DNA of 64,000 nucleotides, taken from assembly GCA_963829055.1 (NCBI GenBank), contig CAWHHI010000004.1:192001-256000 (forward strand), in the 5' to 3' direction. The first letter of the stretch is position 1. Each line of letters starts with the position of its first letter. Shown in pieces: positions 5,215 through 59,287 of this stretch. The position numbers were made by a program, and so were the translations under genes. The notes under the pieces are model-generated. The model saw only the letters and a list, made by a program, of their open reading frames with translations. It was not told the origin of the DNA and made no database searches. The DNA is from an uncultured Gemmatimonadaceae bacterium. GTDB taxonomy: Bacteria; Gemmatimonadota; Gemmatimonadetes; Gemmatimonadales; Gemmatimonadaceae.

Positions 5215-6638
5215 ATGATCGGTCACCGTTCGTCGGTCCTACGCCGTCGACGCCAGCGCTCCGCCATTGTGCGTGCGACATTCCTCGCCGCGATAGCGGG
5301 AGTCACTAGCCACGGCGCCATCGGCAGGAGCACAGGCCGGTCACTCGGCCGTGGGCGTCCAAGCCCTCACGCTGCACGACGTGCTCGACAGCGCGCTCGC
5401 GCGCCACCCGCTCGTCGAAGCAGCGCACGCCCGGGTCCGTGCCGCGCACGGCACTCGAACAACTGCCGGCGCGTTCGGGAACCCGATGCTGAGCTACGAC
5501 GTCGAGAACGCCCCGTTCCCGGGCGGGAGCCGGGTCACCGGAATGGCACGCGAGACGATGACGACCGCCACGCTGCCACTCGAGAGCATTGTCCAGCGAT
5601 TCCCTCGGACGCGACGCGCCGACGCGGAGGTGCGCGCGGCCGAGGCGGATGCACGCGGGGTACGCCAGCAGCTCGCGCTCGACGCGTCGCGGGCGTTCTT
5701 CCGAACGGCACTCGCGCAAGTCAGCATCGAGGTCGCGCGGGGACCTGACCACGTGGCTCGACTCCGTCGTCGCCTACAACCGGACGCGCGTCGAGGAAGG
5801 TGTCGCGGCGGAAGCGGATCTGATCCGGGCCGAGCTGGAACGCGACCGCGCCGCGGCGCAGCTGACGCTGCACGAGGCCGACTACGCGCGCACGCGCGCC
5901 GAGCTCGCGGCCTTCCTCGGCGACCTCAGGTCAGGTGTCCCGAACGTCGTCGTCACGATCGATGACGCGCCGATACCGCTGCCAGACTTCCCGGACTCGT
6001 CGAGTGCGCGCATCGACGCGCACGCCGCTCCGCTCGCAGTCGCGCAGACAGACCTCGAGCGCCGGCCGGACGTGCGAGCGGCGCGCGAACGCCTAACGTC
6101 TGCGGGAGCCGGAGTCTCGGTCGAGCGCGCTACCATCCTGCGCGAGCTCGGGGCCACGTTCGGCGCGAAGCGTACCGCCGGGACAACGTCGATGGTGGCT
6201 GGGCTCAGCCTGCCGCTGCCGATCTTCGATCCGAATCGCGGCGAGATCGCTCGCGCGTCCGCCGAGCGCGACGTGGCGGCGCTCGACCTCGCGGCACGGG
6301 AGCGCACGGCGCGTGCGGAGTTGGCGGGCGCTTACGAGGCGGCGCGACTTCTGACAGCGCAGGTGTCGCTGCTCACTCGCGGAACTGCCGGTCGGCCAGC
6401 GTTCCTTTCCCGCGCCGATGAGGCGCGTCGCATCGCGCTCGGCGCGTATCGCGAGGGCGCAGTTCCCCTGCTGCAGGTCATCGACGCGGCCCGAGCGTGG
6501 GGTGACGCGCGGCTCGCGTTCTACGAGACGTTATACGCACAGCACGAGAGCGTCGCGCTGCTGCTCGTCGCACGGGGCGATGACCTGTTCACCGAACTGC
6601 CCGCGCTCGCGCGCAGTGGGCAGCGAACTCCGCGCTGA
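5215..6638 (+). CDS. TolC/CzcC-family outer membrane efflux protein (frameshifted)
   Basis: LTLHDVLDSALARHP, RRPDVRAA, LSLPLPIFDPNRG, AYREGAVPLLQVIDA across ORFs 5351..5965 and 5589..6638. Confidence 0.85.
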
Positions 6639-6651
6639 CCGAGGCGACGAC

Positions 6652-7990
6652 ATGCCATTCATTGACGAAACAGGCGACGTTAGGCCGTCACCTCGCGGCG
6701 CCCGACTGATTGGTGCCCTGGCTCGAGCCACAACGATCGCCGCACTCATCGGGTGTCGGGATAATACCGCCGAGAAGGGCGAGACCATGAAGGACGACAC
6801 GGCGCGAAAGGTGGCGTCGGCCGACAGCGGGGCGGCGGGGAAGGGAATGGCCGGGATGAACATGGCATCGCCGACGGTCGCACCGGACAGCGCCGCGGCA
6901 GCGGGCACGCAGGTCACGCTCACCGCGAGCCAGATACGCCACGGCGGCGTGGCGTGGCAGCCCGTGACCGTGGGCACGGCGGCGGCCGTGGTCTCCGTTC
7001 CCGGGCAGCTGGTGCCTAACGAAGATCGCACTGCGCGCCTCGGGTCGCCGGCGTCCGGTCGGGTCATCGCCGTCCGGTCTCGTCCGGGGGACCGCGTCGC
7101 GCGAGGCCAGGTGCTCGTCACGCTGCAGAGCCCCGAGGCGGGCGGGGCACAATCCGACTACGCCAAGGCGCAGGCGGAGCTCACGTCGCAGCGCGCGCAG
7201 GCCACGTACGCGAAAAGCGCCCGCGCCCGCGCGGAACGTCTGCTCGCGCTCAAGGCGATCCCGCGGCAGGACTACGAGCGCGCGGTCGCCGACGACGAGC
7301 TTGCGCAGAGCGCGGTCGTTCAGGCGGAGGCCGAGTTGACGCGAGCGCGCAGCTCGGCGGAACAACTCGGGGCGATCGGCTCGGCCAACGGGGAGATCGC
7401 GTTGACGACGCCGCTGGCCGGTGTTGTTCTGGCGCGGACCGCTGTGCCAGGGACCGTGGTGGAGGCCGGCGCGCCGCTCGTCGTCGTCACTGATCCAACG
7501 ACGCTCTGGCTGACGATCAACGCGCCGGAGTCGCTCGCTGGCGCATTCCGCACGGGCGCGACAATGAGCTTCAGGGTCCCGGCCTACTCTCGGGAGTTGT
7601 TTACGGCGCGCGTCGACGCGGTCGGGGCCGGCCTCGACCCCGGCACGCGGACCCTTCCGGTGCGCGCCACGGTCGACAACCGCAGCTGGCCGGCTCAAAC
7701 CCGAGATGCTTGCGACGGTCATGGCAGCCGGCGGCCCACAGGTCGCGGCGGCGATCGTGCCTGACGCGGCGGTGCAGATGCTCAAGGGAAAAACCGTCGT
7801 GTTCATCGCCCGGCCCGCGCCTAACGGGAGTGCGACGTTCACGCGCCGCGAGGTGGAGGTCGGCTCTCGAGCGGACGGCCGCGCCGCGATCCTCAGCGGC
7901 CTCGCAGCGGGCGATGTCGTCGTGACCACGGGCGCCTTCGCGGTGAAGGCCGAGTTCGAGAAGGGCAGCATGCCGAAGATGGAGATGTGA
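6652..7990 (+). CDS. RND efflux periplasmic adaptor, CzcB/CusB family (frameshift near 7690)
   Basis: PGDRVARGQVLVTL, TPLAGVV, LDPGTRTLPVRA, VPDAAVQ, GLAAGDVVV; Met-rich segments KGMAGMNM and SMPKMEM. Confidence 0.88.
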
Positions 7991-7992
7991 CG

Positions 7993-10900
7993 ATGACCGT
8001 TCCACGCAGCGTCATCGAGCGCGTGATCGACGCGTCGATCCGGCATCGCGCGATCGTCATCGGCGCGACACTCGCCGTCGCCGCCGCGGGCACCTGGGCA
8101 TTCGCGACGCTCAAGACGGACGCCTTTCCCGACCTGACGCCGAACCAGGTGCTCGTCATGACCGAGGCGCCCGGACTCTCGCCCGTCGAGGTCGAGAATC
8201 AGGTCACGTACCCGATGGAGGTCGCGATGCTCGGCCTCCCGCGCACGACCGATGTCCGATCGATCTCGAAGGTCGGGACTCTCCGTCGTTACCGTGACGT
8301 TCGAAGACGACGTCGACCTCTACTTCGCGCGCGCGCAGGTGCAGCAGCGCATGCAGGACGCAATAATGTCCCTGCCCGATGGAGCAGAGCCGATGCTCGG
8401 GCCGCCGGCGACAGCGATGGGGGAGGTGTTCCAGTACCTCGTCGAGGCGGACGACGGCGCACGAGACAGCCTGACCTTGCTCAACCTGAGCAACGTTCAG
8501 GCGTACGTGATCGCGCCACTCCTTCGAACCGTGCCCGGCGTCGCGTCGGTGAACGCGTGGGGCGGTCTCGAGCAGCAGTTCGAGGTGCTCGCCGATCCCG
8601 CGAAGCTCGCCGGCTTCGGCCTCACGCTCCACGACCTCGAGACCGCGCTCGCGAACAACAACGCGAACTTCGGCGGCGGCTACATCGAGGACCGCGGCGA
8701 GCGCCTAACGCTGCGCGGCCTCGGGCGGGTTGCTGACACGACCGACATCGCGAACGTCGTCGTCGCCACGCGGGAGGCGACGCCGGTCTACGTCCGTGAC
8801 GTGGCGCGCGTCACGATCGGCGGCGCACCGCGATTCGGCGCCGTGACGCGGGACGCGCGCGGGGAGGCGTTGTCGGCGGCCGTCATCATCCTCAAGGGCT
8901 CGAACGGACGCGAGGTCGTCTCCCGCGTGCTCGCGCGGCTCGAGGAGATCAAACGCGTTCTGCCGCGCGGGGTCACCATCCGCCCGTTCTACAACCAGGG
9001 CGAGGTCGTCGAGCGCACGACCCACACGGTGTTCCGGAACCTCATCGAAGGGGCACTGCTCGTCACCGCGATCCTGTTCCTGTTCCTCCGCACGTTCCGC
9101 GCGTCGCTCGTCACGGCGTCCGTCATCCCGCTCTCGTTGTTGATCGCGTTCCTCGCCATGCGCGAGTTCGGCGTCTCGGCCAACCTCATGAGCCTCGGGG
9201 CGCTCGACTTCGGCCTCATCGTCGATGCGTCGGTGGTGATGGTCGAGAACTACGTGCGCCGGCTGCACGGCCAGCACGCACTCGCGCCTGACGCACGGCG
9301 CGACCTGATACGCGAGGCGGCGTTCGAGGTCGGTCGCCCCGTCGTGTTCGGCGTCGCGATCATCGTCGCGGTGTACGTGCCCATTTTCACGCTCGAGGGG
9401 CTCGAGGGCCGCATGTTCCGGCCGATGGCGTTCACCGTCTGCGCGGCCGTGCTCGGCTCACTCCTCCTCGCGCTCACGTACGTTCCCGCCGCGTCAGCGT
9501 ACGTCTTCGCACGCGAGGGCGGCGCGCGAACGTCGCGACGCACCCACGAGGACGCGCGTTGGTTCGTTGCGTTGCGCGCGAAGTACGCCGGAGCGCTCGA
9601 GTGGGCGCTCACACATCGCCGCGCCGTGGTCGGCGGCGCACTGGCGTTGCTCGCCGTGTCGCTCGGGTCAGTCCCGTTCCTCGGCACCGAGTTCATGCCG
9701 AAGCTCGACGAGGGCTACATGCTGATCGAGACGCGCCGCGCGCCGAGTGCGGCGCTGGCGCAGGGCATCGCCGTCTCCGAGGACGTGGAGCGCACGCTCA
9801 GATCCCTTCCCGAGGTGGCGCGCGTCGTGACGAACCTCGGCCGGCCGCACGAGGCGACCGAGACGATGGCGCTCAACCAGGGCGACGTATACGTGACGTT
9901 CAAACCGAAGCGCGAGTGGCGCGACGGTTCGCTGGACGCGTTGATCGAGCGCATGGACTCGGCGCTCGCGGAGATTCCGGGACTCGACTACGAGTTCAGC
10001 GCGCCGATGCGCATGCGGCTCGACGAAGTGATCTCGGGCGTCCGCACCGACCTGGGCGTGAAGCTCTACGGCGACAGCCTGCCGCTGCTCCAGGAGAAGG
10101 CGGCTGAGGTCGAGCGCGTCATTGCCGCAGTGCCGGGCGCCGAAGACGTGTCGGTCGGCGCGAGCGCCGGTGCGATGCAGCTCGAGGTCGATCTCGATCG
10201 CGCGGCGATCGCGCGCTACGGCCTCAACGTCGCGGACGTGCGCGAGGCCGTCGAGTCGGGGATCGGCGGGGCCGCAACGACGGAGGTGCTGGATGGGCGG
10301 CGACGCTACCCGATTGTCGTTAGGCTCGACGCGCCCTACCGCTCGACGCCCGAGGCCGTGGGCCAGACGCTGATCCGGACACCGGCGGGGGGAACGGTGA
10401 CCCTGTCGCAGGTGGCGCGCCTGCGGACCGTGGAAGGACCGGAGGTCGTCGAGCACGAGGGGGGCCAGCGCTTCGTGGTCGTGAAGAGCAACGTGCGCGG
10501 GCGCGACCTCGGCAGCTTCGTGGCCGACGTCCGACGCGCGGTCGCCGAGCGGGTGACAATGCCGCCCGGCTACTTCACGGCGTACGGCGGGCAGTTCGCG
10601 AACCAGGCACGCGCGACGCGGCGACTCGCGGTCATCGTGCCGCTCGTGCTGCTCCTCATCGTCGTTCTGCTCTACGCGAGCTTCGGGAGTGTGCGGCACG
10701 CGCTGCTCGTCATGCTCAACGTGCCGTTTGCGCTCGTTGGCGGGATCGCCGCGCTCTGGCTGCGCGGTCTGAATCTCAACCTCAGCGCGTCGGTCGGCTT
10801 CATCGCGCTGTTTGGCGTCGCGGTGCTCAACGGCGTCGTGCTGCTGTCGTACATCAACCAGCTTCGGGCTGCCGGCCGCACGTTAGGCGACGCCGTCCGT

Positions 10901-11173
10901 GAGGGTGCCGCGGTTCGGCTGCGGCCCGTGCTCATGACCGCGCTCGTCGCATCGGTCGGCTTCATCCCGATGGCCGTTTCCACGAGTGCGGGCGCCGAGG
11001 TGCAGCGGCCGCTCGCGACGGTGGTTATTGGCGGCCTCGTGTCTTCGACGTTCTTGACTCTCCTCGTGCTACCGACCGTCTTCGCGTGGCTGGAGGAGAG
11101 ACGACTCGCGAGGAAGTCGCTTCCGGCGGAGCGAATACCGGCCGCCGGCGACCCGTCGGCTGCGATTGGGTGA
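7993..11173 (+). CDS. czcA: CzcA/CusA-family heavy-metal RND permease (frameshift near 8275)
   Basis: DAFPDLTPNQV, ANLMSLGALDFGLIVD, EGRMFRPMA, RLRPVLMTALVA, GAEVQRPLATVVIGG. Confidence 0.92.
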
Positions 11174-11435
11174 GGACGGCCGGATGCCACATCGGAGCCA
11201 CGTGATGGCGGGCAATGCACCGCAGAACGCAACGCGTAGCGGAGTTCGACGATGCGCCTTGCCTCGGACCGCCATCCGCTTAACGTGCTTGTGGGAGGTA
11301 TGCGGTTCGCCGTGAACGTGGACGGCTGTTCGCGAACCGCGCGCGGCGAGTGGCTGAAGATCTTCATGAGGTAAGGGTCGCACCAGAACCATCGGTGGTG
11401 TGTGTGCCATTCCGCACCGTCGCAGGTGTGGTTCA

Positions 11436-14400
11436 ATGGCTCAGCTTGTAGCTGCCGCAGCCTTTTGGTCTCTCTTTCTTTGTGTGCTCGACGGCTTCGG
11501 GGGCGCTCGGGCGCAGGGGATGACGTCAGCGGCAATCGCCGGCCGCATCGTCGACGATGGAGGCCACGGATTGCAGGGCGTCGAGGTGGTCGTGAAGAAC
11601 CACGCGACCGGCATCTCGATGCGCACGGTCTCTCGAGCGGACGGACGCTACCTGGTCAGCGGGCTCGAGGTCGGTGGGCCGTATTCCGTGACCGTGCGAC
11701 GAATCGGGTCGCCGATGCAGACGCGGACCGGGCTCTTTCTCAGTCTCGGGCAGCAGTTGCAGGTGGATGTCGGCCTTCGAGCAGCAGGCGGTGAGGCTTC
11801 AGGGAATCGAAACGCGGGCGGCGCAGGATAGACTGTTTTCGCGTGCGCACACGGGCACCGAGGCGTTCCTGTCCGATTCGACGATCCACCAGATGCCCGT
11901 CATCAATCGCGATCTGTACGACCTCGTTCGCCTGGTTCCGCAAATGTCGACGTGGTTCACGCTGGCACCGTCGGGAGCGGGAACCCGTGTGAACAGCATC
12001 CGCATCGACGGCGTCAGCGATCAGGTGCCGTCGAGCAATCTCGCGGCCGGCCAGTTGTATGGCGGCAAGGTCATCCCGCTGGACGCCGTGAAGGAGTACC
12101 AGGTCCTGTTTTCGCCCTTCGATGTGAGATACGGGAGCTTCGCCGGCGCGAGCATCAACGTCGTGACGCGGAGCGGCACCAACGAACTGCACGGAAGTGT
12201 GTTCGGCTACGGCACTAACGAACGCCTCGGTCCAAACGTGCCGTTAGTCCGGAGCGCGCAATATGAGAAACAGCAATTCGGCGTTTCGCTCGGCGGACCG
12301 ATCATTCGCGACCGTCTTCTCTTCTTCGTATCGTCGGAGCTGCAGCGGCGCACGATCCCGGCGATCGGGCCGCGCGTCGGTGAGCCGGCATCCGAGTCAG
12401 AGTCCGCTTCCCGTCAGCGCAGCGGACATTGCGCGCTTCCAGCAGTTGTTGAGCGGCTATGGGCTCGATGGTGGGTCCGCCGGCAGCCGTGACGAACGCC
12501 AATCCGTCGTCGAGCACGTTCCTCCGTCTCGACGCGCCGATCGCCCGCTGGAACAGCCGTATCACCCTACGCGGGAATTACGGGCACGCAGACAGCTCGA
12601 TCTTCGCTCGACCAACGGCGCTCGCGCCCACGAATTGTTCGACGAACGCGTGCTTTCCGTTGTCGTCGCTTCAGCACTCGCGTTGGGTGGACAAGCGGTC
12701 GGTCGCCGCGCAGCTCGTATCGAATCTTTGCGAGCGGTGCATACAACGAGCTCCATGTTGGATACAACGGCATCGTTTCCGGCTTCCGGCCAACCGTTAG
12801 GCAACCGCTCATCGTGGTGACCGTGCCGGGAACGAACGGAGCGCCGGCCGTTCTGCAGTCGGGAACTCATGAAATCGCGACCGGACAGAGGAACGCGAGC
12901 TGGACGGCAGAGATCACGGACAATCTCTCGATCTCCGCGGGCGCGCATCGCGTCACGCTGGGCTTCTCGTCGCAGCTGTTCGACCTGCAGGCCTTTCAGC
13001 TACGCGGCTCCTACGGCATCTGGGAGTTCGGGAGCCTGGACTCGCTGCGAACGGGCGTCGCGTCGCGCTACCGCGTGACGCGAGATACGGGCAGTGTGAC
13101 CGCGGCATCCGGCGCGTATCACGCAGCGTATCTCGGCGACGAGTGGGAAGCGTCGTCCCGCCTGTCGCTCACGTTCGGCCTCCGCGCCGATCTTTCGGTT
13201 CTCTCGGCGCGACCACCGTACGTGGCTGCTGTCGATTCGACATTCCAGGTCCGCACGGACAACGTGCCGTCCGGGGCGGTCGCGTGGTCGCCGCGGCTCG
13301 GCTTCAATTATCGCCTAACGAGCGGCGACCGCGCCGGCTCAGGTGCGCGGCGGCGTCGGTCTGTTCACCGGACGGCCGCCGCTGTTCTGGCTGTTCGGTG
13401 GCTTTTCAGCCTACGGACTCGCCGCGCGAACGCTCCAGTGCGGATCGCTTCCCGGCGACGCCGGCGCCCCACCCGTGTTTCGCACCGACATTCGAAATCC
13501 GCCGCTCGCGTGTGCGGGCGGTCAGACGTTCGCCGCCGCGACGAACGGAGAGATCGACGTCATCGACCGACATCTGCGCCTCCCTCAGACGATGCGCGCC
13601 ACGCTCGCCACGGACGCGCGGCTCCCCTTCGGCGTCGTCGGGACCATCGAAGGGCTGTACACGCGCGCTACGCGCGCCGTGTTCTTTTCTCCGATCAATC
13701 TCAGCGAACCGACCGCGTCCGACCGCCACGACCGCGTGATGTACGGGACGATCAACGCGACGGGAGTGGCCATTCCGAGACGCGTTTCGTCCCGGTTCGG
13801 CGACGTCATCGCGATCACGAATCAGTCGAAGGACTATGCCTACGACGTCGTCGGTGAGCTGCGAAAGAACAGTCGCATCGTCGACGTGACGTCGTCGGTC
13901 AGCTACGGGCGGGCCCGTGACGTACAGAGCCCGCGACCGGTCAGTGCTCTCCTCACTGACAATTGGCGCTTCGCGCGTCCCGTCACCGGTCGTCAGAATG
14001 ACCTCACGCTTGGAACCTCGGATTTCGATCAACCCTTTCAGGTGCGCGCGTCGGGCACCGTTCATTCTCCCTGGCGGCGGTATGGCACCGATCTGTCGTT
14101 CCTCTATGTCGGTGGCTCCGGATTCCCTTACACGTATGTCGCTGGCGGGACGGCGGGACGTGGCGACCTCAACGCCGACGGCGCGGTAGGCAACGACCCG
14201 ATCTACATCCCGCGTTCCGCGTTCGACACGGCGGAGATCAGATTCGGCGGGTCCGCCTCCGACGTGGCAACGCAGCAGGCCGCGTTCGAGCGCTTCGTCA
14301 GCGGCGCGACATGCCTCGCGCAACCAGCGGGGGCGCATCATGGCGCGCAACAGCTGCCGTTCGCCCTGGATGAGTCTCACGAATCTGGCGATACGCCAGG

Positions 14401-14672
14401 CGTTCCCGAGCGTACGAGAGCAGTCGATGGTGTTCGAGTTGCAGGTGTTCAACGTGCTCAACCTGCTGAACTCTCGTTGGGGGAGAATGGCGTTGCCCAC
14501 CGGGGCTTCACTGGCGACCACGAGCCAGATTCCATTGCTGTCACAGATCGGCGAAACGGCAGGACCGCGCGCACAGCCGATCTATCGGTTCGATTCGACG
14601 ATGCGCCGGTACAACGACGAGAACTTCGACACGTACTATCAGATCCAGGTGGCGTTACGCTACAACTTCTAG
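11436..14672 (+). CDS. TonB-dependent receptor, Oar-like, with carboxypeptidase-regulatory-like N-domain (several frameshifts)
   Basis: GRYLVSGLEVGGPYSV, INVVTRSGTNELHGS, SLGGPIIRDRLLFF, WSPRLGFNY, terminal YQIQVALRYNF. Confidence 0.88.
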
Positions 14673-14681
14673 GGAACTGAC

Positions 14682-16641
14682 GTGCCAGACGGACCGGCCG
14701 AGCGGACACGCCTCGTCACCGCTTTCGTTCTTTTCCTGTGCGTGTTGGCTCCGAACGCAACGGCGCAGCGTGCCGGGCACCCGACGCGCGTTCTCGTGCT
14801 GTATCAACAGCAAGCCGAGACGCAGCCGATGCTCGAGTTCACGCAGCAGCTGCGCCTAACGATCACGAAGGAGCTGGGCTCACCGGTCGAGTTCTACCAG
14901 GAAGCCCTGGACTTCGACCGTTTCGCTGGTCGCGAGCAGTCGTCGCCGCTCGTGGACTACTTCGACGACAAGTATCGCCGATTCGGCATCGACGTCGTCG
15001 TGCCCGTTGGCGGCCGAGCGTTGAGATTTGCCGTCGACCAGCTGGGCCGTGTATTGCCGAACGTTCCGATCGTGTTCGCGCTGTGCGCGGCACCTCAGAC
15101 GGATCCGGCGGCACAGCCGGAGAATGTCACGGGGCGTCTCGCCTCGGCGTCGCGCTTCGCACCCACACTGTGGATGGCGCGGCGGCTCCAGCCGGACGCG
15201 CGAGCGGATCGTCGTCGTCGGCGGCGCGGGGCCGGCGGATTCGGCCACGGTCTCCGCCGCGGTGAGCGCGGCCGCGACGTTACGCGACTCACTCGAGCTC
15301 ACCGTCCTTCAGGGCCTCTCGCTCGATGTGTTGCTCGCGAGGCTCCGCCAGATTCCTCGGCGCTCGATCGTCATTTTCGCGAACTACAGGTACGACGCGC
15401 GCGGGCAGGCATTCGAGCCATTGGACATTGTCGGCAGCATCGCGCGCGCGGCGTCGGCCCCGATGTACACACAGTTGGGCAGCTACGTCGGTGAAGGCGT
15501 CGTCGGCGGTTCCGTCCTGCGGTTCGACGACGAAGGCCTGCGCACGGGCCGGCTCGTCGTCCGCGTCCTTCGCCGTCGCGCCGGCGAACGGATGCCGCCC
15601 GTGGAGCCCATCGCCAAGTCGTTCGTTGCCGACTGGCGTCAACTGCGCCGTTGGGGACTCTCCGAAAAACGTCTGCCACCGGGAACCGAGGTGCTGTTCC
15701 GAGAACCGACGCTGTGGCAGCGACACCGGACGGTCGTGCTCGTGGCGCTCGGCGTCATCATCGCGGAGCTGCTGCTCATCGGTGGCCTTCTCGCCGAACG
15801 GCGGCAGCGCAAACGGGCACAAGCCGTGGCCGAGGAGCAGCAGCGGCGCGCCGATGAGACGAGACGTCACGTTGCGCACATGGGGCGTGTGGCCCTCGTC
15901 GGTGAGCTGGCGGCGACGATGTCACACGAGCTTCGGCAGCCGCTCGCCGCGATCCGCGCGAACGCCGAAACCGGTGCCAGGCTCCTGACGCGTAGGACGG
16001 GACAGTTCGGCGAGGACGAGCGGGAGCTATGTGAAGAGATCTTCAGCGAGATCGTCGCCGACGATCTGCTTGCCTCCGACATCATCACGCGGGTTCGCGC
16101 GCTCGTACGAAAGGAGGAATTGCCCCAGCAGCCTGTGGACCTCAATGAAGTGTGTCGAACCTCGGAACGCCTGGTCCAGCACGATGCGCTGACTCGCGGG
16201 ATCGACATCATCTTGTCGCTCGACCCGCGGATACCGCCGGTCACTGGCGACCCCATTCAGCTTCAGCAGGTCGTGCTGAATCTCATGCTGAACGCGCTCG
16301 ATGCATGCGCAGTGTCGACGAATCCGCGGATCGTCGTCGGTACGGTGGCTCGGGGCGACGAAGTCGAGGTCTCCGTGCGCGACAACGGGCCCGGACTCCC
16401 GGAGGATGTGCGGCCACATCTATTCGAGTCGTTCTTCACCACCAAATCACAGGGTCTGGGCTTGGGCCTGGTGATCGTGCAGTCGATCGTCGAGCGACAC
16501 CACGGGCAGGTGCGGGCCGAGAACGGCGAGCAGGGGGGCGCGATCTTTCGCGTCGTGCTGCCCGGCACGCGGAGCTCAGCTCCGGGTCCGTCCAAAGAGC
16601 GACGCGGGCACATCGAGCCGGAAGCTTCGGTATCGAATTAG
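14682..16641 (+). CDS. Sensor histidine kinase with substrate-binding-like periplasmic domain (frameshift near 15200)
   Basis: GELAATMSHELRQPL, QQVVLNLMLNA, DNGPG, FFTTKSQGLGLGL. Confidence 0.88.
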
Positions 16642-17279: not shown

Positions 17280-17344
17280 GCAGCTCCAGGCCGTTCCCGA
17301 GAGCCGCGCCCCGTAGGTGGGCGTTCGTCCGCTTCCGGTGCCGA

Positions 17345-17512
17345 TTACACGGCGCACCCGCAGTTCGACGGGCAGGCGCACACGTCACAGCCGCACGCGT
17401 TGCCGCAGCAGCAGCGGGCCGCATCGGTGCCTGGTGCGTTGCTCGTCGAGCGGCACGCGCACGTGTTCGCGTGACAGGAGGCGCACGCGCAGGATGTCTG
17501 GGAGCTGGTCAT
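17345..17512 (-). CDS. Metallothionein-like Cys-rich peptide (55 aa, 14 Cys)
   Basis: MTSSQTSCACASCHANTCACRSTSNAPGTDAARCCCGNACGCDVCACPSNCGCAV; GAGGG 5 nt before ATG; GC-rich third positions. Confidence 0.75.
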   Translation of the reverse strand: MTSSQTSCACASCHANTCACRSTSNAPGTDAARCCCGNACGCDVCACPSNCGCAV

Positions 17513-17649
17513 GGTATCCCTCGGAGTCTCGATGTTGGTATCACGACGTCCCGGCGTCCCCGGGCATTGGCGCGGCGCGTGCACGGCTGGCCGTGTCCAC
17601 GCGTGCGCCCGTCGTGAGGTACACGTTAGGCCTCGAGATCCACTGCCGA

Positions 17650-17665
17650 TTGAACGAGGGGGCTG
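17650..17665 (-). promoter_or_regulatory. Putative AraC-type operator upstream of Cys-rich peptide gene
   Basis: TTGAACGAGGGGGCTG matches 19850-19865 at 14 of 16 positions. Confidence 0.5.
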
Positions 17666-17710
17666 TGTTGCGCGCGAGTCGCGTCGCTGCTGCCAGCGCA
17701 GAGCGCCGCG

Positions 17711-18645: not shown

Positions 18646-19752
18646 TCAGGCGCCGACCGAGGCCCCGACGCGGCGCGCCACCTGCTCGGCGATGAATGCG
18701 GCGTCCTCCCCGACGCCGCCGATGAGCGACGACGTCATGCGGTGCTGGAAGCGCAGGCCGACGAAGTAGAGTCCCGCCATGTCAGTCGCGACGCCGCGGC
18801 GGTGCCGGGGGCGCCCGTCGGTGTGGAGAACGGGTAGGTCGATCCAGCGGTAGTCGGATGTGAACCCCGTGCACCACACGACGACCCGCGGCTCGAGCAC
18901 CGTCCCGTCGCAGACGGGGAGGCCCGCGCGCTCGTCGGTGACGCGCCCGACCCGTACCACGCCGCTGGCCTCGATGGCGCGCTCCGGGATGCCAATGAGC
19001 GAGTCGCCTCCGGCGGCCGCACGGGCAAACAGACGCCTGCCCAGTCGGGTGTCCAGCGTGGCGCGTGTCATCACAGGCCAGATCCAGTCGAACAGGTCCC
19101 GTCCAAGCAGCCGGCGGGGCAGATGCCCCGTGTCGCGGCCCGACAGCCACACCTTGCGGAAGCGCGCGAGCTCGAGCGCGATCTGCGCGCCGGAATTGCC
19201 AGCGCCGACGACGAGCGCCGGGCCGTCGGGCAGGTCGAACGGGCTCCGGTACTGGCTCGAGTGGAGCTGGTGGATGGTCGGCGCGAGCCGCGACGCGCGA
19301 TCCGGCACCGCGGGCCGCTGGAACGGTCCCGTCGCGACCACGACGTTGTCGGCCTCGAACCGGGTGTCTCCCGCGCGTGCGACGTAGCGCTCTCCGTCCC
19401 AGCCGAGTGACTCGACCCGCGTGTCGTGGCGAACGGGGAGGTCGAAGCGCTCGACGTACCGCTCGAGATAGTCTGCCACCTCGTCCTTGTCGGGCAGGTG
19501 GGAGGGCGGGGCGGGGAAGACCAGACCGGGCAGCCCGCTGAACGCCGCGGGAGTGAAGAGGCGGAGCGAGTCCCAGCGCCGGCGCCACACATCCCCCGTG
19601 CGGCGCTCGGCGTCGAGAATGACGAAGTCGACGTCACGTGCCGCCAGGTGATGGCCGACGGCGAGGCCCGCCTGTCCGCCGCCGATGACGATGGTTTCGA
19701 CGCGCTCCACGCGCGTGGAGGGCATGGTGTGCGTGTGCGCGGAATGGGTCAT
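18646..19752 (-). CDS. Flavin-containing monooxygenase, CzcO/ArsO-like
   Basis: VIGGGQAG, WRRRWDSLRLFTP, QLHSSQY, VVGAGNSG, WCTGF. Confidence 0.88.
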   Translation of the reverse strand: MTHSAHTHTMPSTRVERVETIVIGGGQAGLAVGHHLAARDVDFVILDAERRTGDVWRRRWDSLRLFTPAAFSGLPGLVFPAPPSHLPDKDEVADYLERYVERFDLPVRHDTRVESLGWDGERYVARAGDTRFEADNVVVATGPFQRPAVPDRASRLAPTIHQLHSSQYRSPFDLPDGPALVVGAGNSGAQIALELARFRKVWLSGRDTGHLPRRLLGRDLFDWIWPVMTRATLDTRLGRRLFARAAAGGDSLIGIPERAIEASGVVRVGRVTDERAGLPVCDGTVLEPRVVVWCTGFTSDYRWIDLPVLHTDGRPRHRRGVATDMAGLYFVGLRFQHRMTSSLIGGVGEDAAFIAEQVARRVGASVGA

Positions 19753-19849
19753 GGCGGTCGCTCCGGAGACGTGGACGGCTCGGGGTCGCGGCCGATCGAC
19801 GATCGCGGTCAGCCGTGCGACGATGATCGCCTAACGCCGACGTCCGCGC

Positions 19850-19865
19850 TTGAACAAAGGGGCTG
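19850..19865 (-). promoter_or_regulatory. Putative AraC-type operator upstream of flavin monooxygenase
   Basis: TTGAACAAAGGGGCTG, near-copy of 17650-17665. Confidence 0.5.
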
Positions 19866-19924
19866 ATCGCGAGCGCTCCGGCGCCCGCAAGCACGCGGCG
19901 CCGGCAATGCAACAGCCCGCCGCG

Positions 19925-20744
19925 TCAGCGGCCGCGCATCGAGCGCGCGTAGCGGGCCGGCGTCTCTCCGAACGTCTGGCGGAAGACGCGCGTGAAGTGC
20001 GACTGGTCGGAGAAGCCGGCGTCGAGCGCGATCATTGACAGCGGACGATCGCCCTTCGCGACCTCGATGCGCGCACGCTCGATCCGACGACGCCTAACGT
20101 AGGTCGCGACCGTCGTACCGTGATAGCGGCGGAACGTGCGGAGCAGATGCGACGCGTGCACGCCGGCGAGCGCGGCGAGGTCGGTGACCGAGGGAGTGTC
20201 CGCGCCGGCGGCCTCGATCGCGTCCTCGACACTCTGGAGCCAGCGCGGTCGCCGCCGCTCGCCGATCACCGGGAGTCGCGATAGATCGGCCACGAGAAGG
20301 AGGAGCGCGCCCTCGACGGCGAACCGCGAGACGCGGTCCGGCTCGCGGAGCTCGGCGCCGAGCCGCGCCGCCCAGCTGACCGCGCCCCGTCGCGCAGGAT
20401 CTGTGGCGCGGTCGGCAACGCGGCCTCGCCCGCGCCGACGCGCTGCGAACCACCGCGCAGAGAACTGGATGTTGAGCCACCGGCCCGGCGTGAGGAACCG
20501 GTGCCCGTGCGTCTCGTACGACGGCGTGTAGAGAAGGCTCTGCACTCCCAGCTCGCGCGTGCGACTGCCGATCTCCTCCGTCGCGCTGCCCTGGAGCACG
20601 AGGCTCAGGAGTGGCGCATCGTGCGCGTGGGCGGCGACGCAGCAGTCCGGCGGCGTACGTGTTCTCCGCGACCGACACGCCGTCGAACGCCTGCGCGCGC
20701 ACCGGCGCTCCGACGAACTTCCCCATCTCGATCGGTGCGGTCAT
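19925..20744 (-). CDS. AraC-family transcriptional regulator (frameshifted)
   Basis: GVHASHLLRTFRR, IALDAGFSDQSHFTRVFR; N-terminus MTAPIEMGKF in another frame. Confidence 0.85.
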
Positions 20745-58154: not shown

Positions 58155-58272
58155 GGCCTGGTCATCAGTCAGAAAAGGCCCGGTCATCAGTCGTGGGTCG
58201 TATAGTCGTCAGTTTTCAGTCGGTAACTGACTACTGATCACTATATGACCCATGACTGATGACCAGGCCGTT
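58155..58272. repeat. Long palindromic element, copy 2, with partial tandem duplication of left arm
   Basis: 58177-58269 aligns with 17184-17276; extra GGCCTGGTCATCAGTC at 58155-58170. Confidence 0.9.
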
Positions 58273-58276
58273 CAAG

Positions 58277-59287
58277 CTACGGTGCTACGATGGTTCCCAT
58301 CTTGACGAGCTCGAAGTTCGCGGCGGTGAGCTGCCCGAGCTTGGCGAGGTTGTCGTCGCTCCAGCGTGAGTCGGGCGCGCCGCTGATGTAGAAGCCGCTG
58401 CCGTTGTCGGCGAGGAACATCCCGTACTTCTTGAGCGCCGTGAGGATCACGCGCACCTCGGGCGGATACGTCGAGATGTCGAAGTCCGCCTTGAGGCGGA
58501 CGCGCGCGCCCATCGGCATGTAGCTCGTGCTCGTTTGCGAGCTCGCCCAGTGACGCGCGGGCGAGATGTATGCCTTGCGCGTCGTCGGACAGGTGAACCG
58601 CAGCGCGTGGTTGATCGCGCCCTTGATCACCGCTTCGTCATAGCGCACGAGTCCGGGGAAGATCGGAAGCCCCGCAGCGTCGGCGGACGTCCAGCCGGCC
58701 GGGCGCAGCGCGTTCGAGCTCAGATCCCAGGTCGCGCCGGAACCTGCGTGCCAGCTCGTGCCACCGTTGAGTGGGTGCGAATCGAACGTCTCGTAGAGCT
58801 TCCAGGCGATCGTGTCGATGACGATCACGTGCCGATCGCCCGTGCCGTTCGGTCCGCCCTCGATGGGCGCGTTCGCCGGGATCGGATACGGTCCGGGGTC
58901 GCTCTCATCCGCGTAGTCGAACGAGACCGGCACCTTGGGCTGCGTTCCGCCCACGAGCACGTACGGAATGCCGTTAGGTGCGCCGTCCCAGACCGTTCCG
59001 AAGTCGGGGTGCACGCGTCGCGTGGAGCCGCCGCAGCTGTTGATGAGCGTCGTGGAGTTCGGATCGACTGGCTGCGCTGAGATGTCCGTGTTCCACGGGT
59101 TGTCCGCGGGGAACACGAGTCGAGCGCCGACGCTGCCGCCTCCGGTCCCAGGCGGCGCGGTGGTGCCGCCGCCTTTCCTGCCATCGGCTGACAGCGTGTC
59201 GGCACCGGGTGACATTGACGTATCACCCGCGCAGGCGGTGCCTAACGTCAGCGCGGCCAGGACTGCGACTGCTGCTTCACGACGCAT
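58277..59287 (-). CDS. Hypothetical secreted lipoprotein
   Basis: Lipobox GTAC; FPADNPWN, WTSADAAGLPIFPGLVR, ALKKYGMFLADNG. Confidence 0.8.
   Translation of the reverse strand: MRREAAVAVLAALTLGTACAGDTSMSPGADTLSADGRKGGGTTAPPGTGGGSVGARLVFPADNPWNTDISAQPVDPNSTTLINSCGGSTRRVHPDFGTVWDGAPNGIPYVLVGGTQPKVPVSFDYADESDPGPYPIPANAPIEGGPNGTGDRHVIVIDTIAWKLYETFDSHPLNGGTSWHAGSGATWDLSSNALRPAGWTSADAAGLPIFPGLVRYDEAVIKGAINHALRFTCPTTRKAYISPARHWASSQTSTSYMPMGARVRLKADFDISTYPPEVRVILTALKKYGMFLADNGSGFYISGAPDSRWSDDNLAKLGQLTAANFELVKMGTIVAP

Follow-up and report, generated by a model that had tools for sequence, protein, structure and literature searches.

Few bacterial metallothioneins have been characterised, the described ones being SmtA/BmtA and MymT (PMC7387436 and PMC7558416, each in part), and prokaryotic metallothioneins are held to prefer His over Cys (PMC11705764, in part). 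Metallothioneins in general are about 3.5-14 kDa in size and rich in Cys arranged in CxC, CxxC and CC motifs (PMC13578184, in part). The SmtA/BmtA proteins, which fall under PF02069 and include the Pseudomonas metallothioneins, have His ligands and a zinc-finger-type fold. The SmtA gene adjoins that of its own regulator, SmtB (PMC7387436, in part). MymT of Mycobacterium tuberculosis is a 4.9-kDa, originally unannotated, copper-induced Cu(I) binder (PMC7558416, in part). Among metal-responsive sigma factors, CorE (copper) and CorE2 (cadmium/zinc) of Myxococcus xanthus both require a linker CxC together with a tail rich in Cys, and Cys174 of CorE2 corresponds to Ala185 of CorE, an exchange that switches specificity from cadmium to copper (PMC4937300, in part).

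Here, we analyse a stretch of 64,000 nucleotides from an uncultured Gemmatimonadaceae bacterium (the window), in which a preliminary description had picked out a eukaryote-style metallothionein-like peptide, P0002, as a possibly new bacterial metallothionein. On balance, we favour the reading that P0002 is a cytoplasmic metallothionein, most likely for copper, which would be switched on by an adjacent cupin-type AraC regulator through an upstream operator. The features on which the argument draws are as follows.

17345..17512, minus strand: metallothionein-like peptide gene (P0002), from translation, homologs and dN/dS
17517..17522, minus strand: ribosome-binding site GAGGGA, read from the sequence, 4 nt before the ATG of the P0002 gene
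17623..17628, minus strand: -10-like hexamer TAACGT, aligned in five loci and lying 21 nt beyond the core of the operator
17648..17666, minus strand: predicted AraC operator, a single site of consensus TCAGCCCCTTCGTTCAAG, 21.4 bits
17711..18565, minus strand: AraC-family regulator with an N-terminal cupin, from Pfam HTH_18, invariant columns and a structure model
18646..19752, minus strand: FMO-like flavoprotein, with best matches to the MSMEG_0569 family and ArsO, both below cut-off
19848..19866, minus strand: second predicted operator, before the FMO-like and AraC genes, 24.6 bits
17181..17279, no strand assigned: long inverted repeat with 47-nt arms, -75.7 kcal/mol
about 5351-11173, plus strand: CzcCBA-type pump, CusA/CzcA 1057 bits against a cut-off of 701

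Translation of 17345-17512 on the minus strand gives 55 residues and a TAA stop (5.3 kDa), with 14 Cys, one His and no F, W, Y, L or I, so that the length, the Cys count and the absence of aromatic residues given in the preliminary description were all exact. The Cys residues make up 25% of the peptide, include CxC, CxxC and CC motifs, and occupy positions 8, 10, 13, 18 and 20 followed by 34, 35, 36, 40, 42, 45, 47, 51 and 53, a 5+9 layout around a Cys-free linker of 13 residues (21-33) that agrees with the two clusters first reported. The ribosome-binding site, called good at that time, lies 4 nt before the ATG, and purine-rich sites precede most of the homologs. The gene has a GC3 of 0.89 and lies between the co-directional AraC gene and a convergent response regulator gene. 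The peptide has neither leader nor signal peptide, its first Cys being residue 8, and since it also lacks a hydrophobic core it would be expected to fold only around metal-thiolate clusters; its predicted structure (pLDDT 49, without secondary structure) fits, but does not prove, a peptide that has no fold when metal-free. Three of four soil RNA runs yielded short, shallow contigs that overlap the P0002 gene or the leader before it, and we consider them too weak to count as evidence of expression because the word shares were below 0.1 and the libraries may hold DNA.

To place P0002 in a family, we ran a search of 1.84 billion representatives, which returned four matches, and extended these by iterated alignments to 53 distinct peptides of 50-81 residues from two soil-bacterial phyla, Myxococcota and Gemmatimonadota (L093, whose start was not found, is left out of these counts). 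Exactly 14 Cys are present in 42 of the 53, a single full Cys pattern fits 37, aromatic residues are absent from 51 and His from 35; in the host genome this full pattern occurs once, at the P0002 locus. The preliminary description had named a lack of homologs with conserved Cys positions as grounds for refutation, and such homologs were found, with 12 Cys invariant in all 22 aligned members. A profile built from 22 members matched, at E ≤ 0.001, at least 6 of 201 genomes from the family to which the host belongs, at least 47 of 251 genomes of one myxobacterial order and at least 5 of 151 of another, these being lower bounds because 16-42 first-look candidates per genome were scored, and counts taken by score with the weakest matches included. 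The family peptide tree has 9 well-supported branches among 50. Searches with the single sequence were otherwise almost blind to the family, which surfaced only in the search of representatives and the iterated alignments: they found no relative of P0002 in assembled genome contigs or in plasmids, and an alignment search found none in viral contigs. Nine of ten family sequences tested were absent from a collection of 15 billion proteins, bearing out the expectation that automated annotation would probably miss the gene, and members that carry any database name are called 'hypothetical protein'.

Sequence comparison confirms that P0002 is a real gene under purifying selection, because its homologs keep their Cys and dN/dS is 0.17-0.24 in three pairs (0.24, 0.23 and 0.17 when the window, L027 and L023 are compared with one another). 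The ratio is 0.49 when the P0002 gene is compared with the repeat-expanded L034, and substitutions relative to L027 are distributed 9/6/15 over the three codon positions, favouring the third. Two near-identical strains differ by 3-4 non-synonymous changes versus one synonymous change, none of them at a Cys, and retain all 14 Cys.

Several family members depart from the common form. An 81-residue member with 19 Cys (L034:2436-2681) has grown by tandem CGSxCG repeats, a 12-Cys member (L030:8531-8710) has a His-rich tail in place of the last CxC, and L104 and L105 encode divergent peptides of 50 residues and 12 Cys that lie opposite to a CorE-type sigma gene and may form a subfamily of their own. 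In the database proteins P0004, P0015 and P0023 the peptide appears as the end of a longer predicted protein, probably through gene-calling artefacts, and P0003 is a contig-truncated form.

We next compared the family with known metallothioneins, a check by HMM that the preliminary description had called for and in which no metallothionein family was matched by the members. At E ≤ 1, none of 17 members matched Pfam and none of 22 matched NCBIfam; PF02069 (Metallothio_Pro) had no match in P0002, in any of the 17 members or in the host genome, with a positive Synechococcus control, and PF00131 had none at the P0002 locus. P0002 resembles SmtA/BmtA in being bacterial, Cys-rich and about 55-60 residues long, and just as the SmtA gene adjoins that of SmtB, the P0002 gene adjoins an AraC gene. 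The two differ in the following ways: about 16% Cys in SmtA/BmtA (PMC13578184, in part) vs. 25% in P0002, His ligands in a zinc-finger-type fold vs. a family without conserved His, and, in the cyanobacterial members, a divergent ArsR/SmtB repressor vs. an AraC activator or CorE-type sigma factor here. The earlier statement that the peptide is not of the SmtA/BmtA type therefore stands, on the lack of a PF02069 match and on the different Cys/His content. MymT is the closest functional model for the copper reading that we favour; the two, compared by description, differ in phylum and in regulator, and no family member matched a MymT model in Pfam or NCBIfam, libraries that may hold none.

The label 'eukaryote-style' holds for composition and not for kinship. 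With plant Ec-1/type 4, Drosophila family 5 and vertebrate metallothioneins P0002 shares a high proportion of Cys, CxC clusters, a Cys-free linker between clusters and the absence of aromatic residues, and eukaryotic metallothionein clusters are the nearest named clusters in the Atlas, scoring 0.82-0.84; three unnamed clusters rank first (0.91-0.88), one of them mostly Myxococcota. There is no significant sequence match between eukaryotic metallothioneins and the P0002 family, and the likeness may be convergent: the only PDB match of P0002 is a wheat Ec-1 domain at E=4.9, and neither SmtA nor PflQ2 chains are among the PDB matches at E ≤ 10. At 5.3 kDa with 14 Cys in 55 residues, P0002 lies within the size range and Cys-motif pattern of metallothioneins, and the 51 of 53 members without aromatics conform to the further description of these proteins as having few or no aromatic and large hydrophobic residues. 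We consider a metallothionein function for the family likely, and, as a real gene outside SmtA/BmtA and without Pfam or NCBIfam match, P0002 is probably the new bacterial metallothionein that had been proposed. A soil-metagenome metallothionein screen reportedly exists and could list family members. No description of the family or of its regulon was found in the literature searched, which included PMC3107203, PMC8999054, PMC7826278 and PMC11672702 (each in part), and subscription reviews of metallothionein diversity could list members; three family motifs were absent from four supplements of PMC11705764.

The regulator next to P0002 belongs to a cupin-containing AraC family that we found in 35 of 201 genomes. 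Its structure model (pLDDT 89) matches full-length AraC folds, and residues H33, H35, Q39 and H72, which lie within the predicted cupin domain, are invariant in 30 of 30 sequences. Metal-binding cupins carry an HxH...Q/E...H ligand set in the barrel. The four invariant residues are thus a possible metal site, and direct sensing of copper through metal bound at this His-His-Gln-His set is conceivable, if somewhat doubtful in our judgement. With AraC, RhaR, ToxT and CuxR the protein shares a cupin sensor, a double helix-turn-helix, tandem sites 21 bp apart and a site at the -35 position; it differs in falling below every NCBIfam cut-off, and the characterised cupin-AraC proteins among its fold matches bind organic ligands. 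A His-His-Gln-His set together with a copper-flavoured regulon was not described for AraC regulators in the literature searched, and AraC is not mentioned in the first half of a 2024 bacterial metal-sensing review or in a copper-homeostasis review, the latter likewise covered in part.

The peptide gene follows this AraC in 3 of 30 fetched loci and is thus an optional target, while the FMO-like gene, a predicted member of the same regulon, is present in 22 of the 30; the FMO-like protein of the window is 72% identical to that of the syntenic locus L023. A second AraC gene lies at window positions 19925-20599 (minus strand), and its homolog directly precedes the peptide gene in L067 and L068, which lack the FMO-AraC block. 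Elsewhere in the host genome a broken further copy of the cupin-containing AraC that adjoins P0002, with three stops in the match (G000 C8:270127-270489), stands beside three operator sites and YtkA, MauG-like and GNAT genes; the AraC-YtkA-MauG-like-GNAT cluster is whole in L023 and L029 and split in the host genome (G000).

In 6 of 8 Gemmatimonadota genomes, the window included, the peptide gene is preceded by the AraC gene and a site resembling TCAGCCCCTTCGTTCAAG; the other two, L067 and L068, have the other AraC and no operator. The operator also lies downstream of the AraC gene in 20 of the 30 fetched loci, often as a pair 21 bp apart. We built a matrix from 40 sites of 16 other loci, with a seed pattern taken from peptide-bearing loci, and it finds 9 sites of at least 16 bits in the 7.78-Mb host genome, among them the one at 17648-17666, and the top five all stand at the two loci of this AraC. 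The score of 21.4 bits for the window's site is partly circular, because the matrix was seeded from peptide-bearing loci, and it exceeds the scores of just 3 of the 40 training sites; the site in a near-identical strain scores 19.9 bits. Exact matches to the pattern number 29, spread over 9 of 10 AraC-bearing genomes (reversed control 0), against one in five other genomes, three of which are listed as lacking the AraC.

Of 61 promoter-proximal operator sites, 35 are followed at 21-22 nt by a TAxxxT motif (control offsets 0, 1 and 1), and this fixed spacing to the -10 box puts the operator over the -35 region. A site over the -35 region is the geometry of a class II activator. The -10 box at 17623-17628 is predicted to be part of an activator-dependent promoter, with transcription expected to start near 17616, and a promoter scanner returned nothing at the P0002 gene, as expected for such a promoter. 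That the AraC protein binds the operator over the -35 position and activates transcription is quite probable.

In Myxococcota the same peptide family sits in a different regulatory setting. An ECF sigma gene lies within 1.5 kb of the peptide gene in 31 of 35 loci, in 29 of them directly downstream on the same strand, and all 31 partner sigma factors have 4-6 tail Cys and a linker CxC, sharing the Cys-rich tail and the CxC with CorE and CorE2 (ECF44, now ECF238); sigma-70 regions 2 and 4 were confirmed by Pfam for two partners. The motif GTAA-N17/18-CGTC is present within 130 nt upstream of the peptide gene in 25 of the 35 loci, against a background of at most 8 in 1650 tiles of the same loci, whereas the ECF238 survey, in the part available, reports no conserved promoter. 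The Cys that specifies cadmium, read by eye, is absent from all 31 sigma tails. Eight tails have CorE-like spacing, with Ala (7) or Thr (1) at the specificity position; these eight include the tails that go with the four closest peptides to P0002, of which three carry Ala and one Thr. For the 23 tails without CorE spacing the Ala/Cys rule may not hold. The described targets of CorE and CorE2 are oxidase, ATPase and efflux genes, and the word 'metallothionein' is absent from the parts searched of two CorE papers and one review. The Myxococcota loci could constitute a two-gene unit in which the peptide would soak up the inducer of the sigma factor and so shut the response off. The host genome has no tblastn match to a CorE-type sigma factor at E ≤ 1e-15 and uses the AraC in place of one.

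We additionally asked which genes follow the 29 exact operator sites. Five genomes have multicopper oxidase genes behind such sites, which in G316 lie on a different contig from the AraC. Seven have YtkA-like genes there, mostly with a MauG-like di-haem enzyme next in line where the locus could be read that far, and six have GNAT-like genes, two of them confirmed by Pfam. In Bacillus subtilis, the assembly of CuA is aided by YtkA domains (PMC13344008, in part). The regulon also holds FMO-like, dehydrogenase, hydrolase and transporter genes, which like the GNAT-like genes have no link to copper, and no Zn/Cd exporter or ars gene was recognised behind the 29 sites, where some genes had no Pfam match. 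The presence of multicopper oxidase and YtkA/MauG-like genes in the regulon makes us lean slightly towards copper, as Cu(I) in the cytoplasm, as both signal and cargo. The host's own YtkA-MauG-oxidase cluster on C20 had no operator match.

The pair of YtkA and MauG-like genes is the commonest operator-led target of the AraC (L029:9156-10827, L033-L050; G000 C8:268136-270079, C20:839540-843819); the C20 cluster contains a multicopper oxidase and a further YtkA as well. The YtkA protein of the pair is conserved and lipoprotein-like, and the MauG-like enzyme falls below the MauG and MbnH cut-offs; the two may be an enzyme and substrate for a periplasmic copper site. An operator-led multicopper oxidase at L122:1669-2262 has a long His-rich N-terminal stretch.

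Under the reading that we favour, metal entering the cytoplasm would activate the AraC protein, which would bind the operator over the -35 position so that the peptide gene is transcribed; the peptide would then fold around metal-thiolate clusters and lower the concentration of free metal. The strongest argument for this reading is the association of a single peptide family with two regulators that are unrelated to each other, one of which is of a known metal-sensor type. Its main competitor keeps the metallothionein and exchanges copper for Zn, Cd, Hg or As(III) as the working cargo. The nine-Cys half of P0002 suits a three-ion divalent metal cluster, a CzcA-type pump lies 6 kb from P0002, and ArsO is the second-best NCBIfam match of the FMO-like gene, though below cut-off. 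CorE2, moreover, answers to Cd and Zn (PMC4937300, in part), and a scan of 44 neighbour proteins placed MerC beside two loci and a chromate transporter beside one. We nevertheless consider a cargo other than copper unlikely, because the operator precedes multicopper oxidase and YtkA genes with no Zn/Cd exporter or ars gene recognised behind the 29 sites, the cadmium-specifying Cys is in none of the 31 sigma tails, and the Czc pump has no operator and is missing from all nine homologous loci.

A further alternative, improbable in our view, is that the AraC senses an organic compound or oxidant and the peptide acts mainly as a thiol/redox buffer in a general stress regulon. This would account for the FMO-like (22 of 30 loci), GNAT-like, dehydrogenase and hydrolase targets and for the ligand-binding AraC proteins among the fold matches, and a Pseudomonas metallothionein is dispensable for metal resistance (PMC7387436, in part); it does not account for the independent link to a CorE-type metal-sensing sigma factor in 31 of 35 myxobacterial loci, and the fixed Cys spacing fits clusters better than a redox sink. 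Far less probable still is that P0002 gives rise to a modified peptide or is secreted in disulfide-bonded form, an idea that the small size and Cys content of P0002 and the MauG-like gene often found downstream in Gemmatimonadota might encourage: no leader or signal peptide precedes the Cys series, which starts at residue 8, the 44 neighbour proteins scanned include neither a radical-SAM nor another peptide-modifying family, and the MauG-like gene is found together with YtkA in the absence of the peptide (13 of 30 loci), whereas the peptide of the window has no such gene next to it. Finally, a chance Cys-rich frame in GC-rich DNA has in its favour that at least 14 Cys occur in five 55-residue six-frame windows of the 7.78-Mb, 67% GC genome (P0002 and four others), so that the Cys count alone is not decisive, and that a single-sequence search of 60 relatives gave weak, chance-level matches and none that was clear. 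This explanation is effectively refuted by homologs in two phyla that share the invariant Cys, the start, the stop and the ribosome site, with dN/dS of about 0.2.

What is new here is the Gemmatimonadota branch and the AraC regulon. In its fullest form the copper reading would make P0002 part of a third independent bacterial metallothionein family, held in two unrelated metal switches, namely CorE-type sigma factors in Myxococcota and, in Gemmatimonadota, an AraC that would sense copper directly at its His-His-Gln-His cupin site and run an undescribed copper regulon from a defined operator, a combination that we put forward tentatively and regard as rather unlikely to hold in every part. If true, it would describe a nearly all-cysteine bacterial family resembling eukaryotic metallothioneins and an AraC regulon made up of a metallothionein, a multicopper oxidase, YtkA and a MauG-like enzyme. 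Under the favoured reading, the known kinds of bacterial metallothionein would grow to three, and metal-responsive switches would gain a new type. A 14-Cys, mostly His-free family hidden from annotation in about a fifth of the genomes searched in one myxobacterial order (at least 47 of 251) would also change the picture of a prokaryotic preference for His over Cys. The peptides would be short metal binders that are simple to synthesise, and with the operator and -10 box one can ask directly whether an AraC protein acts as a copper sensor. For CorE-type sigma factors, the myxobacterial units provide a promoter that is conserved and a partner that could plausibly exert feedback.

Two neighbouring features of the preliminary description exist as reported, and their connection to the gene did not hold up. 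The CzcCBA-type pump about 6 kb away is real (1057 bits), and it is ruled out as a linked partner by having no operator site and by its absence from all nine homologous loci, of 3-18 kb. Many genes in window positions 5351-16641 and elsewhere look frameshifted (CzcC, CzcB, the start of CzcA, a TonB-dependent receptor and a sensor kinase), which suggests assembly indel errors. The strong hairpin after the gene (-75.7 kcal/mol) starts 65 nt beyond the stop of P0002, and its lack of a T-tail, a second copy at window positions 58169-58278 with 88% identity, and its absence from all seven homologous loci rule it out as a dedicated terminator of the P0002 gene; it is a dispersed repeat and not part of the conserved module. 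The left arm of a hairpin seen after the L023 gene seems to be kept at about 17295-17312 without its partner arm. The repeat belongs to a palindromic family of short ACTGA(T/C)GAC units; C3, C10, C11 and C16 hold weaker copies of it.
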